From: Pyrinomonadaceae bacterium
GTDB lineage: Bacteria; Acidobacteriota; Blastocatellia; Pyrinomonadales; Pyrinomonadaceae
Assembly: GCA_036403435.1 (NCBI GenBank)
Contig: DASWQY010000157.1
Span: 3,186-67,185, forward strand
Direction: 5' to 3'
DNA: 64,000 nucleotides
The translations under genes were made by a program, and so were the position numbers. Each line of letters opens with the position of its first letter. Within the stretch, counting starts at the first letter, position 1. Positions 57,257-63,718 of the stretch are shown here, one piece after another. The notes beneath the pieces were generated by a model. That model was not told the DNA's origin. It searched no databases and worked only from the letters and a program-made list of their open reading frames with translations.

Positions 57257-57286
57257 CTTGACAAAGAGGGACTCAACATTTATCAT
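57257..57286 (+). promoter_or_regulatory. Consensus sigma70-type promoter of the heat-shock block, overlapped by a HAIR-like (HspR operator-like) sequence
   Basis: TTGACA (57258-57263), a 17-nt spacer, then TATCAT (57281-57286). CTTGACA-AAGAGGG-ACTCAAC (57257-57277) compares with the HAIR consensus CTTGAGT-N7-ACTCAAG at 11/14 positions with correct spacing. Confidence 0.5.
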
Positions 57287-57382
57287 ACGGCCATGCTCAC
57301 AAGCCGGGGTCCTCGATTTACTCTCAGTCTTCGGCCTGTGAGCAGCCAAAAGAATTACCGTTAAGGAAAGGAGAAGTTCGTC

Positions 57383-57922
57383 ATGAGCATCATTCGTTAC
57401 GACCCATTCCGCGACCTACGCAGTCTTCAGGACGAAGTCAACCGTCTGTTTTCGACCAACTTGTCCCGCGTCTTCGGTGACGAGGGCATTGCCCGCGGTG
57501 CCTGGAACCCGAACGTGGACATCTACGAGAACAAGGACCAGATCGTCATAGAGGCCGAGCTGCCCGGCATGAACCGCGAGGACTTCGACCTCTCGTTCGA
57601 GAACAACGTGATTACGCTTCGCGGCGAGCGGCGCTTCGAGAAGAAGGACGAGACGGACAACTACCACCGCGTCGAACGCTCCTACGGCTCTTTCACGCGC
57701 TCGTTCACGCTGCCGCCGACCGTCTCCGGCGAAGGCACCACGGCCGAGTACCGCAACGGCGTCCTGCGTATCACGCTCCCCAAACGCGAAGAGGTCAAGG
57801 CCCGCCGCATAGAGATTGCCGGCGAAGGCGCTGAGGCCAAGACCTCGCGCACCATCGAGGCTCAGGCCGAAACGTCCGGCGGCGAAAAGTCTGACAAGAC
57901 GATGACGGCGTCCGGCAAGTAA
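57383..57922 (+). CDS. Small heat-shock protein, Hsp20/alpha-crystallin family
   Basis: 179 aa. AAGGAAAGGAG lies upstream. The alpha-crystallin domain reads WNPNVDIYENKDQIVIEAELPGMNREDFDL...GVLRITLPKRE. Confidence 0.9.
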   Translation: MSIIRYDPFRDLRSLQDEVNRLFSTNLSRVFGDEGIARGAWNPNVDIYENKDQIVIEAELPGMNREDFDLSFENNVITLRGERRFEKKDETDNYHRVERSYGSFTRSFTLPPTVSGEGTTAEYRNGVLRITLPKREEVKARRIEIAGEGAEAKTSRTIEAQAETSGGEKSDKTMTASGK

Positions 57923-57929
57923 ATACTTT

Positions 57930-58006
57930 AGTGATGAGTGGCGAGTGATGTGTGAAAGACTTCTTCTTATCACACATCACTCGCCACTCATCACTCATCA
58001 CTTTTT
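57930..58006 (+). repeat. Long hairpin element (GTGATGA family) plus T5 tract abutting the clpB start codon
   Basis: AGTGATGAGTGGCGAGTGATGTGTGA (57930-57955) pairs with TCACACATCACTCGCCACTCATCACT (57970-57995). The stem is 26 bp and perfect, with a 14-nt loop, followed by CATCACTTTTT and the ATG at 58007. Confidence 0.85.
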
Positions 58007-61891: not shown

Positions 61892-61970
61892 AGTTGTCAG
61901 TGGTCAGTGGCCGGTGGTCAGTTATGAAACTGATTTCAAACTGACCACCGGCCACTGACCACTGACAACT
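61892..61970. repeat. Long hairpin element, GTGGTCA heptamer family
   Basis: AGTTGTCAGTGGTCAGTGGCCGGTGGTCAGT (61892-61922) pairs with ACTGACCACCGGCCACTGACCACTGACAACT (61940-61970). The stem is 31 bp and perfect, with a 17-nt loop. It lies between grpE and groEL. Confidence 0.85.
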
Positions 61971-61991
61971 AATTGTAGAGGAGAACACAAA

Positions 61992-63620
61992 GTGGCAGCG
62001 AAAGAGTTGAAGTTCAGGGAAGAGGCGCGCAGCGCCATGCTCCAGGGCGTGAACACGCTGGCGAACGCGGTGCGCGTGACCCTGGGGCCGCGCGGGCGTA
62101 ACGTCGTGCTCGCGAAAAAATTCGGCTCGCCCGTGATCACGAAGGACGGCGTCACGGTGGCGAAGGAGATCGAGCTGAAGGACAAGTACCAGAACATGGG
62201 CGCGCAGATGGTGCGCGAGGTGGCGACGAAGACCAACGACACGGCCGGCGACGGCACGACGACCGCGACCGTTCTGGCCCAGGCCATCTTCCGCGAGGGC
62301 GTTAAGAACGTCACGGCCGGCGCGAACCCCATGGCCTTGCAGCGCGGCATACAATTGGGCACCGCGCGCGCCGTCGCCGAGCTTGAGCGCATGTCGAAGA
62401 AGGTCAAAGGTAAAGAAGAGCTAGCCAACGTCGCCTCCGTCTCGGCGAACAACGACCGGCAGATCGGGCAGTTGATTTCCGAGGCGATGGAGCAGGTCGG
62501 GAAGGACGGCGTCGTCACGGTCGAAGAGTCGAAGACGCTCCAGACCGAGCTTGAGATAGTCGAAGGGATGCAGTTCGACCGCGGCTACCTCTCGCCCTAC
62601 TTCGTGACCAACCCAGACAGGATGGAGGCCGTGCTCGAAGAGCCGCTGATTCTGCTTCACGAGAAGAAGATCGCGGCGATGCGCGACTTGCTGCCCGTGC
62701 TCGAACAGGTCGCGCAGCAGGGCCGCTCGTTCCTCATCATCGCCGAGGACGTGGAGGGCGACGCGCTCGCCACGCTCGTCGTCAACCGCCTGCGCGGGAC
62801 CATCAAGGTCTGCGCCGTCAAGGCACCCGCCTTCGGCGACCGCCGCAAGGCGATCCTCGAAGACCTCGCCACGCTGACCGGCGGGCGCGTCATCACCGAA
62901 GACCTCGGCATCAAGTTGGAGAACGTGACGCCCGCAGACCTCGGCTCGGCCAAGCGCGTCATCATCAGCAAGGACGACACGACCGTCGTCGAGGGCGCGG
63001 GCGACGCAAAGGCGATTCAGGGGCGCGTCGCGGCGATTCGCGCGCAGATCGAGGAGACCACGTCGGACTACGACCGCGAGAAGTTGCAGGAGCGGCTGGC
63101 GAAGCTGGCCGGCGGCGTGGCCGTGATACGCGTGGGCGCGGCGACCGAGACCGCGATGAAAGAGATCAAGATGAGGGTCGAGGACGCCCTGAACGCGACG
63201 AAGGCGGCGGCGCAGGAGGGCATCGTACCGGGCGGCGGCGTGGCGCTGCTGCGCGCGGCCAGGGCGCTGGACAAGATTGAGGACCAGGACGGCGACGTGC
63301 TGACCGGCGTCCAGATCGTCAAGCGCGCGCTCGAAGAGCCGTTGCGCCGCATCGCGGAGAACGCGGGCGTGGAGGGCGCGATAGTCGTCGGCCGCGTCGA
63401 AGGGTCTAAGGGGGCGACCGGCTACAACGCCGCCAACGGCAAGTACGAAGACCTTGTGGCGGCGGGCATCATTGACCCGACGAAAGTGGTCCGCACGGCG
63501 CTGCAAAACGCCGCGTCAATCGCAGGGCTCCTGCTGACGACCGACGCCGCCGTCATAGACGCCCCCGAGCCGAAGAGGTCTCAGCCTCCGATGCAGGGCG
63601 GCGAAGACTACGACTACTGA
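61992..63620 (+). CDS. groL: Chaperonin GroEL (Cpn60)
   Basis: 542 aa with a GTG start, preceded by GAGGAG. Motifs are [19 protein letters not shown] and [11 protein letters not shown]. Confidence 0.95.
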
Positions 63621-63622
63621 AG

Positions 63623-63718
63623 AATGAAAAATTAGAAATGTAAAATGCAAAATGGGAGACGGTCGGCGGCGGGCTCTGCGTCTTCCATTTTGCATTTTTA
63701 ATTTTGAACTTTTCATTT
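63623..63718. repeat. A/T-rich long hairpin element, AAATGCAAAA family
   Basis: AATGAAAAATTAGAAATGTAAAATGCAAAATGGGAGACG (63623-63661) pairs with CGTCTTCCATTTTGCATTTTTAATTTTGAACTTTTCATT (63679-63717). The stem is about 39 bp with about 6 mismatches. It starts 3 nt after the groEL stop. Confidence 0.75.

Follow-up and report, generated by a model that had tools for sequence, protein, structure and literature searches.

A chaperone block with one sigma-70-type promoter, an operator-like dyad and heptamer-repeat hairpins at its junctions in a Pyrinomonadaceae genome

Towards the end of a 64,000-nucleotide (nt) stretch of DNA from a Pyrinomonadaceae bacterium of the phylum Acidobacteriota (assembly GCA_036403435.1, contig DASWQY010000157.1, positions 3,186 to 67,185 of the forward strand), referred to here as the window, is a block of five chaperone genes in the order hsp20A, clpB, hsp20B, grpE and groEL. 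Upstream of hsp20A lies a sigma-70-type promoter, overlapped by a dyad resembling the HspR-associated inverted repeat (HAIR), and at each of the four internal junctions and at the 3′ end is a long hairpin, H1 to H5. The features are listed below in window coordinates, with folding energies at 37 °C and z-scores from 200 shuffles; the leader upstream of hsp20A is the 5′ untranslated region (UTR).

57257–57286, + strand: sigma-70-type promoter, −35 box TTGACA (57258–57263) and −10 box TATCAT (57281–57286), spacing 17, 11 of 12 positions matching
57257–57277, + strand: HAIR-like dyad CTTGACA-N7-ACTCAAC, overlapping the −35 box of the promoter
57294–57344, + strand: 5′-UTR stem-loop, −27 kcal/mol, z −1.8
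57383–57922, + strand: hsp20A, small heat-shock protein of 179 amino acids; Pfam PF00011, E 7e-23
57930–57995, + strand: H1, 26 perfect pairs (100% complementary), arms of GTGATGA-type heptamers; −52.3 kcal/mol, z −12.4
58007–60598, + strand: clpB, disaggregase of 863 amino acids; Pfam set Clp_N/AAA_2/ClpB_D2-small
60604–60686, + strand: H2, arms of GAATGAT heptamers with several pairing registers; −45.3 kcal/mol, z −8.3
60695–61135, + strand: hsp20B, second small heat-shock protein, 146 amino acids; Pfam PF00011, E 4e-22
61131–61189, + strand: H3, stem of 13–16 bp; −24 kcal/mol, z −6.0
61193–61888, + strand: grpE, nucleotide-exchange factor, 231 amino acids from the upstream ATG; Pfam PF01025, E 9e-36
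61892–61970, + strand: H4, 32 perfect pairs, arms of CAGTGGT heptamers; −70.2 kcal/mol, z −14.1
61992–63620, + strand: groEL, GTG start with ribosome-binding site GAGGAG; Pfam Cpn60
63622–63718, + strand: H5, A-rich heptamers of AAAATGC type, G+C-rich apical stem and U-rich 3′ arm; −44.6 kcal/mol, z −8.2

Gene content, gene order and promoter region

A preliminary description of the block, made from the sequence alone, had recognized five co-oriented chaperone genes, and Pfam and TIGRFAM-type equivalog matches confirm all of them. ClpB scores 1383 bits on TIGR03346 (cut-off 1232) and GroEL 836 bits on TIGR02348 (cut-off 582), both passing the equivalog threshold, and GrpE (PF01025) and the two HSP20 proteins (PF00011) exceed the Pfam cut-offs. 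The grpE start is placed by comparison with relatives at the ATG at 61193 and not at the second ATG at 61229, because the 36 nt between them show only synonymous (third-position) or conservative changes; GrpE entries of 231–236 amino acids are also the form called in many databases. Neither clpB nor grpE is preceded by a Shine-Dalgarno sequence, their start codons lying 11 nt and 3 nt past their respective hairpins, and the ribosome-binding site of hsp20B (GGAG, 60686–60689) directly abuts the stem of H2. Hsp20A carries a C-terminal extension of about 35 residues past the alpha-crystallin domain. The C terminus of GroEL lacks the usual Gly-Gly-Met repeats, and this protein may be a paralogue of a separate groES–groEL pair.

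The composition of the block is non-canonical, as had been proposed. Neither a Pfam scan of the window's open reading frames (ORFs) nor tblastn detected groES, dnaK or dnaJ, whether within the 64 kb or in the ±6–10 kb flanks of its relatives, leaving groEL without groES and grpE apart from dnaK and dnaJ. Each of the less usual arrangements has precedent: groEL paralogues without groES, stand-alone grpE genes, and links between small heat-shock protein genes and clpB.

For comparison, 13 loci were read from relatives; one (L027) duplicates another (L001), and the set thus represents 12 distinct genomes with GrpE identities of 69–86%, three of them on contigs of 1.0, 2.5 and 5.2 Mb. At least five close relatives were among the matches listed by a metagenome scan with GrpE, and the others were added by exact-protein look-up; the closest genomes are Pyrinomonadaceae and other Acidobacteriota metagenome-assembled genomes. 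The order hsp20A–clpB–hsp20B–grpE–groEL, followed by a ClpA/ClpC-like AAA+ gene, is present in all 12, except that hsp20B is absent in L002, and Hsp20A is 77–96% identical between the window and its relatives. Two genomes, L057 and L058, have different genes upstream, and the block therefore behaves as a unit. In loci from other phyla returned by the same search, grpE stands in the canonical dnaK–grpE–dnaJ order. Judged from these comparisons, the hsp20–clpB–hsp20–grpE–groEL order is a fixed trait of the lineage.

The promoter at 57258–57286 is the sole sigma-70-like match on either strand between 56800 and 64000 in a consensus scan, and in a relaxed scan of the whole block it is the only such site at a conserved position in the 12 genomes, which upholds the earlier claim of a single near-consensus promoter with no other convincing one inside the block. 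Its sequence, GACTTGACA-N7-GACTCAA(C/G)(A/C)TTTAT(C/T)AT, is invariant in 12 of 12 genomes apart from the variable N7 spacer, and the invariant part includes the dyad TTGA-N11-TCAA. With the same spacing, the dyad at 57257–57277 has three mismatches to the HAIR sequence CTTGAGT-N7-ACTCAAG, and only two in L003–L005. Its spacing and flanks also fit the Bifidobacterium HAIR consensus, TTGAGysw-N6-CTCAAsTTTT (PMC9004370), the left half being altered to a perfect −35 box. Among the HspR targets listed in that work are clpB and dnaK (PMC9004370), and clpB, hsp20, grpE and groEL are typical targets of this repressor (PMC9004370, PMC6888292). Because of its position, its conservation and the gene content of the block, we read the dyad as a putative HspR-type operator, and HspR-type repression is the most likely form of heat control, acting at transcription initiation.

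No CIRCE site (the operator of HrcA) was found within three mismatches. Downstream of the promoter, the 5′-UTR stem-loop keeps only a 7-bp core (GCCGAAA/TTTCGGC) in the 12 genomes, with double changes in three pairs, and the hsp20A ribosome-binding site AAGGAAAGGAG (57365–57375) is unpaired; with so short a conserved stem and a free ribosome-binding site, an RNA thermometer in this leader was rejected.

Junction hairpins as members of dispersed repeat families

The long hairpins reported earlier at the four junctions and at the 3′ end are real features of the sequence: their z-scores run from −6 to −14, and each is more stable than all 200 of its shuffled versions. The stems comprise 26 pairs in H1, 27–35 in H2, 13–16 in H3, 32 in H4, and about 20 in the core or 40 overall in H5, so that all except the shorter H3 reach the length of about 20 bp taken as the criterion for RNase III. 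According to Tandem Repeats Finder, at least one arm of every hairpin in the block is an array of period 7 with 3.6–4.9 copies; both arms are such arrays in H2, H4 and H5, and only the 3′ arm is in H1 and H3. Between the H1 stem and the clpB ATG are one unpaired extra heptamer and a run of five T, the whole element spanning 57930–58006. H3 overlaps the stop codon of hsp20B, ends 3 nt before the grpE ATG and has three extra CTCATCA units on its 3′ side, which give it three possible registers. A terminator scan found no canonical intrinsic terminator (short G+C-rich stem, 3–8-nt loop and U-tract) at any of the five sites. A U-tract follows the stem of H1, as T5, and none follows H2, H3 or H4; H5 looks like an extended intrinsic terminator acting in both directions.

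These hairpins are not confined to the block. The window contains 18 long hairpins, 16 of them intergenic and located after stop codons. H2 has a full-length paralogue at 54095–54189 (score 74, against 15 ± 2.4 for shuffled sequence), H4 has one at 21780–21871 (score 81, full length) and a partial one at 55517–55620, and H5 has a full-length one at 41991–42087; H1 and H3 belong to one family, by partial alignment. Overall, full-length paralogues of H2, H4 and H5 score 74–81 and partial ones (H4 with 55517, H1 with H3) 45–47, the shuffled means being 13–15 ± 2.4. The same families occur at non-orthologous sites in other genomes. Long hairpins number 2.2 per 10 kb in Pyrinomonadaceae-like loci; across 270 kb of loci from other phyla their density is 0.04 per 10 kb, about 50-fold lower. 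Of 56 long hairpins of the lineage, 21 have arms whose period-7 self-identity is at least 70%. Their G+C content is 33–51%, against 65% for the genome. The junction hairpins are thus copies of dispersed palindrome families, 60–100 nt long, with arms of tandem heptamers. The view of them as a device of the heat-shock operon is not supported: the same families follow many unrelated genes, and in relatives the block's own hairpins are replaced, decayed or absent.

Ordinary G+C-rich terminator-like stems are also present in the genome, for example at 28633 and 53366. Because both types coexist, and stand side by side at 53366–53539, the heptamer hairpins are regarded as a class apart from standard terminators. 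At that site two hairpin types adjoin after one gene, a G+C-rich terminator-like stem of 19 pairs (53366–53409) and a 38-pair hairpin with arms of a 10-nt unit, CACGAAGnnn (53449–53539). The period is not always 7, units of 8 nt being found in hairpins at 19211, 21227 and 26103. After the Nramp gene (54212–55522) lies an asymmetric member of the CAGTGGT family (55517–55620), in which six TGGTCAG units in tandem are opposed, some 45 nt further downstream, by no more than a short complementary remnant, AACTGACCACTG; the hairpin seems to be either decaying or growing. Intergenic tandem repeats that form no hairpin were seen at 22406–22522 and 4836–4888: GCCCTTCGAGCC, a 12-nt unit, in 7.5 copies, and a 21-nt unit in 2.5 copies.

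At orthologous junctions of the block the slot is kept and the family occupying it changes from one relative to the next, the families found there being GTGAYRR, CAGTRRT, GAATGAT, GGGATGA, GGTAAAT, CGTAAAT, AGTCAGR, GATTTTW and AAAAKGC. The hsp20A–clpB slot is filled in 12 of 12 genomes, by a GTGAYRR-type hairpin in ten and by a G+C-rich stem in L057 and L058, and a run of four to seven T follows the GTGAYRR-type hairpin in nine of the ten. Most variable among relatives is the clpB–hsp20B junction, where the structure has decayed to −15 to −22 kcal/mol in four genomes. A hairpin-free version of this junction in L022 was rejected as an over-extended gene call; the junction there is 145 nt long and strongly structured. 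The site of H3 is empty in L057, where the spacer measures 40 nt, and the copies in L054 and L026 are decayed; L026 also has a half-deleted hairpin copy. At the site of H4, L023 and L057 have no hairpin, with spacers of 26 and 39 nt, other families stand there in L002, L005, L024 and L026, and in two loci a small DUF2158 gene (61 amino acids; L058 7233–7418, L025 about 2345–2550) stands in place of a hairpin between grpE and groEL. Past groEL, every one of the 13 loci read has a hairpin. As to whether gene order and hairpins recur in relatives, a check suggested earlier, the order does (12 of 12 genomes, L002 lacking hsp20B), and the hairpins do so only in part, being swapped, decayed or absent at several junctions. 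Because they are optional in this way, any role they have would be modulatory and not essential.

Pairing within the elements nevertheless appears to be kept. In an alignment of the hairpin 3′ of groEL, double changes that preserve pairing are seen in 8 of 33 pairs and recur every seven columns on both arms, and paralogues within the window likewise differ by mirrored changes. On this evidence the heptamer units of the two arms evolve in concert, with pairing maintained.

The elements may be selfish or neutral DNA, generated by slippage or spread by copying of the REPIN, MITE or STRR kind, that accumulates where insertion is tolerated, in the gap separating a stop codon from the ribosome-binding site of the following gene, with no adaptive role in the operon and any effect on the mRNA incidental. 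Paralogous copies are dispersed, families are common to genomes at non-orthologous sites, orthologous junctions show swaps, decay, a half-deletion (L026) and empty sites, the elements are far below the genome in G+C, and they are rare between divergent genes, as are the heptamer repeats of Xanthomonas (PMC4692102). Running counter to a neutral origin are the perfect 26- and 32-pair stems, kept despite paralogue differences of about 20%, and the compensatory changes among orthologues, which imply selection or active correction, together with the constant filling of the groEL 3′ slot (13 of 13 loci) and the hsp20A–clpB slot (12 of 12 genomes). Pfam scanning of window ORFs revealed neither a transposase nor a RAYT gene. 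This is a serious rival, which we hold to be possible though not favoured; being an account of where the elements come from, it can coexist with the functional effects set out below.

The symmetry of the elements, which are alike on both strands, and the period of 7 shared by different families would also suit palindromes that act in DNA, through cruciforms or a heptamer-binding protein (in nucleoid organisation, as a gyrase- or IHF-type site of the sort proposed for REP/BIME, or as a recombination or replication signal), the effect in RNA being secondary; a constant period suggests a length-dependent mechanism or a binding protein, and binding of CspB-type proteins, one per heptamer, has been discussed (PMC4679880). 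No candidate protein was identified here, however, and the elements keep close to stop codons and occur in none of the four divergent promoter regions of the window, a pattern that fits a constraint linked to the transcript, which makes action at the DNA level very unlikely. Long hairpins occupy 0 of 4 divergent and 2 of 3 convergent junctions of the window, and crude counts pooled from the window and the relatives' loci are 8 of 15 convergent, 3 of 11 divergent and 27 of 68 co-directional junctions.

We give little credence to a more adventurous idea. Undescribed self-propagating heptamer palindromes would insert between a stop codon and the next start as modular operon punctuation; folding would bring stop and start to within about 10–20 nt of each other, allowing re-initiation at the Shine-Dalgarno-less clpB and grpE in a counterpart of ribosome shunting, and the 7-nt period would be the mark of a specific binding protein or of the way in which the elements are copied.

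Transcription of the block and its response to heat

The hairpins take up the spacers between the genes. Across the window and its relatives, stems mostly begin −6 to +8 nt from the stop codon and the next start codon follows 0–21 nt after the stem, and hairpin-free junctions are short, 26 nt (L023) and 39 nt (L057) at grpE–groEL and 40 nt at hsp20B–grpE (L057). No internal sigma-70-like promoter is conserved in position in the 12 genomes, and matches to the sigma-54 pattern occur only downstream of the block. Because the spacers are filled by hairpins, because junctions without a hairpin measure only 26–40 nt and because no internal promoter is conserved, co-transcription is considered very probable, and a single primary transcript from hsp20A to groEL would fit the evidence. 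A local departure may exist in L057 and L058, where the hsp20A–clpB spacer measures 190–200 nt and contains a G+C-rich terminator-like stem; clpB may have its own promoter in these two genomes.

That long spacer, with its terminator-like stem and space for a promoter, is one of the points in favour of five separate transcription units. On that view every hairpin would terminate transcription efficiently, and every gene after the first would be served by its own promoter, of a type outside the scans and located in the preceding coding region or in the hairpin. The U5 tail of H1 and the U-rich arm of H5 also suit efficient termination, and the promoter scans covered the sigma-70 type only. Such an arrangement is improbable given that the base of the stem is only 3–21 nt from the next start codon, that no promoter-like site lies at a conserved position in the 12 genomes, that L023 and L057 have junctions of 26–40 nt without any hairpin, and that H2, H3 and H4 lack a U-tract and the terminator scan returned nothing at the junctions.

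The preliminary description had further suggested that the stems, several of them comparatively A+T-rich and with slippery registers, could act as temperature-tuned attenuators that open on heat shock. Slippery registers were indeed found, H2 and H3 each having alternatives. The predicted stability of the hairpins, −24 to −70 kcal/mol at 37 °C, declines to −19 to −61 kcal/mol at 45 °C and to −6 to −32 kcal/mol at 75 °C, so that the stems are predicted to stay folded even at the highest temperature, and no ribosome-binding site lies within a weak stem; the proposal of attenuators that open on heat shock is not borne out. A thermosensor of this kind, in which stems melt or shift at heat shock and let through more transcription or translation of the downstream chaperone genes, could draw on the alternative registers, on a stem G+C content below that of the genome and on the weakness of H3, at −24 kcal/mol. 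A slip of register, however, merely replaces one long helix by another, without any opening; the ribosome-binding sites are positioned beyond the stems or coincide with their terminal base, and neither they nor the start codons are held in a weak mismatched helix; no ROSE, fourU or other Rfam family matches; the same hairpin families follow unrelated genes (Nramp, TonB-C, cupin, DUF4431); and some relatives have no hairpin at the same junctions. We consider thermosensing by these stems extremely unlikely. In Rfam, the whole window gives no match at the gathering threshold, and permissive E-values over the block return only sub-threshold models of microRNA precursors, which are generic matches to long hairpins.

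Taken jointly, the observations are best read as a lineage-specific operon with one sigma-70-type promoter under HspR-like operator control, in which the hairpins are generic punctuation and not dedicated regulators; we put the probability of this reading at roughly 0.55. An HspR-like repressor would occupy the HAIR-like operator and be released on heat shock, placing temperature control at initiation, and a single primary transcript would then run from hsp20A to groEL. In this RNA the hairpins would serve as generic, temperature-independent punctuation. H1, with its stem and U5, would be a leaky terminator, and H5, with its G+C-rich core and U-rich arm, the final one, and stems of at least 26 pairs would be targets of RNase III and barriers to 3′-to-5′ exonucleases. 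The promoter-proximal hsp20A message would exceed the distal message, and the segments would decay independently. Differences in stoichiometry through partial termination, RNase III cleavage or 3′-end protection, as first proposed for the block, are plausible under this analysis.

Several points weigh against the operon reading. By count alone the HAIR match in the window is not significant, as 47 of 100 shuffles give at least two matches at three mismatches. Its left half-site is at the same time a perfect −35 box, and the promoter alone could explain the conservation of this half. No hspR or other MerR-type ORF was found in the window by the Pfam scan of its ORFs or by tblastn. The promoter scans addressed the sigma-70 type, and promoters of other types could lie inside the coding regions. 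Enrichment of hairpins in the block is marginal (4 of 4 junctions have one, compared with about 9 of the 22 other co-directional junctions in the window; one-sided p about 0.05, by hand count). Finally, the absence or decay of hairpins in relatives indicates, as far as these loci go, that any function they have is dispensable.

Comparison with known systems and neighbouring genes

The closest counterparts of the hairpins are the heptamer repeats of Xanthomonas, with 70–75 convergent heptamer-array pairs per genome that are capable of forming stem-loops (Rehm et al. 2015, PMC4692102). Those arrays lie between co-oriented or convergent ORFs, no more than about 50 bp from start or stop codons, are rare between divergent ORFs, and occupy the same intergenic sites in related species with highly variable length and sequence (PMC4692102). 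Like the repeats of Xanthomonas and Nostoc, the elements described here consist of tandem 7-nt units and are intergenic, between co-oriented or convergent genes, with none in the divergent junctions of the window. They differ in having at least nine unrelated unit families, in contrast to a single G-rich quadruplex motif (GGGAATC or GGGGAYT). Most of the families cannot form G-quadruplexes: the units in the block are GTGATGA, GAATGAT, CAGTGGT and AAAATGC, and only the GGGATGA family of the relatives is G3-rich. They also differ from those of Xanthomonas in that nearly all arrays are paired into long, near-perfect hairpins, and in belonging to another phylum, the Acidobacteriota.

Two further heptamer groups, the cyanobacterial STRR and the TAACTGA repeats of Beggiatoaceae, cyanobacteria and Bacteroidetes, are likewise intergenic and present in many copies per genome (PMC4679880, PMC2408588, bioRxiv 10.1101/2022.06.06.494920). 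Their arrays are mostly direct and show little self-pairing, with one inverted case in a Beggiatoa genome (PMC4679880). As in those groups, arrays here often end a few nucleotides before a start codon, as at clpB and grpE, and some units are nearly identical, for example ccactgactactgac in Nostoc and CCACTGACTACTGACC at 21780–21871.

Dispersed palindromes at gene 3′ ends and within operons are also typical of the REP, BIME and REPIN elements of enterobacteria and pseudomonads. REP elements, such as that of malE–malF, stabilize the mRNA preceding them by blocking 3′ exonucleases and also lead to partial termination, and REPINs are hairpins of about 100 nt made of two inverted repeats. Unlike these, the present elements have no terminal GTAG/CGTC tag, beginning instead with AGTGATGAG, GAAAAGCAATG, AGCAGTGGTC or GAATGAAAAA, and their arms are tandem heptamers in place of one conserved sequence; no RAYT (an IS200/IS605-like Y1 transposase) is found among the scanned window ORFs. 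The early region of phage T7 offers a functional parallel: it is transcribed from one promoter cluster and has an RNase III hairpin at every junction, giving monocistronic mRNAs with structured ends. The block similarly has a long stem-loop at each gene junction of a predicted polycistron, but the sites of T7 are dedicated and conserved, with internal loops, whereas the stems here are interchangeable members of repeat families and their cleavage is only predicted.

The promoter region has its parallel in the HspR/HAIR operons of Streptomyces, Bifidobacterium, Deinococcus and Helicobacter (PMC9004370, PMC6888292, PMC6102357), with which it shares a sigma-70-type promoter overlapped by TTGA-N11-TCAA. 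It differs in that the operon includes no dnaK, dnaJ or hspR and in that the left half-site is TTGACA and not TTGAGT, the operator here being putative.

Directly past H5, in the region 63723–63951, lies TTGGCTTGCCAATTGCA (63725–63739), which fits the sigma-54 pattern TGGC-N7-TTGC and is near-invariant in all relatives. It is followed by a conserved structured leader of about 200 nt, GCGAGG...GGAAACGCAACGGCGTTTCC...CCCTCGC, and then, from 63951, by the ClpA/ClpC-like AAA+ gene that always follows the block and whose product does not reach the equivalog cut-off of either ClpA or ClpB. A pair of genes for an extracytoplasmic-function (ECF) sigma factor and a kinase-like protein is found some 5 kb upstream of the block both in the window and in L023, the two loci read there. 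In the window, the ECF sigma factor gene (52089–52646, − strand) adjoins an ORF of 1021 amino acids (48990–52055, − strand), whose counterpart in L023 (1–1659) is a Ser/Thr kinase with WD40/Tricorn-like domains. Elsewhere, the window encodes a 2959-residue protein (8052–16931, − strand) with GH94 supersandwich, GH94 catalytic and glucoamylase-like domains, which resembles cyclic beta-1,2-glucan synthase, and it holds TonB-dependent receptor, CarboxypepD_reg and TPR genes typical of Acidobacteria.

We found no literature on such hairpins in Acidobacteria. What is new here is the host lineage and a multi-family variant of known heptamer repeats, and not a heat-shock-specific regulatory device. 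One practical consequence concerns annotation, as gene callers run ORFs into the hairpins and choose wrong starts (grpE, hsp20B and the L022 call). The relatives also provide a natural experiment, in which the same junction carries different hairpins or none, that can be used to measure termination, RNA processing and product ratios. For heat-shock control, the locus points to an HspR-like operator acting on a fixed hsp20–clpB–hsp20–grpE–groEL unit in a little-studied phylum, rather than to an RNA thermosensor. The heptamer hairpins known from Xanthomonas and cyanobacteria are also present in abundant soil Acidobacteria, where they comprise many unit families and combine a conserved position with a fast turnover of sequence.

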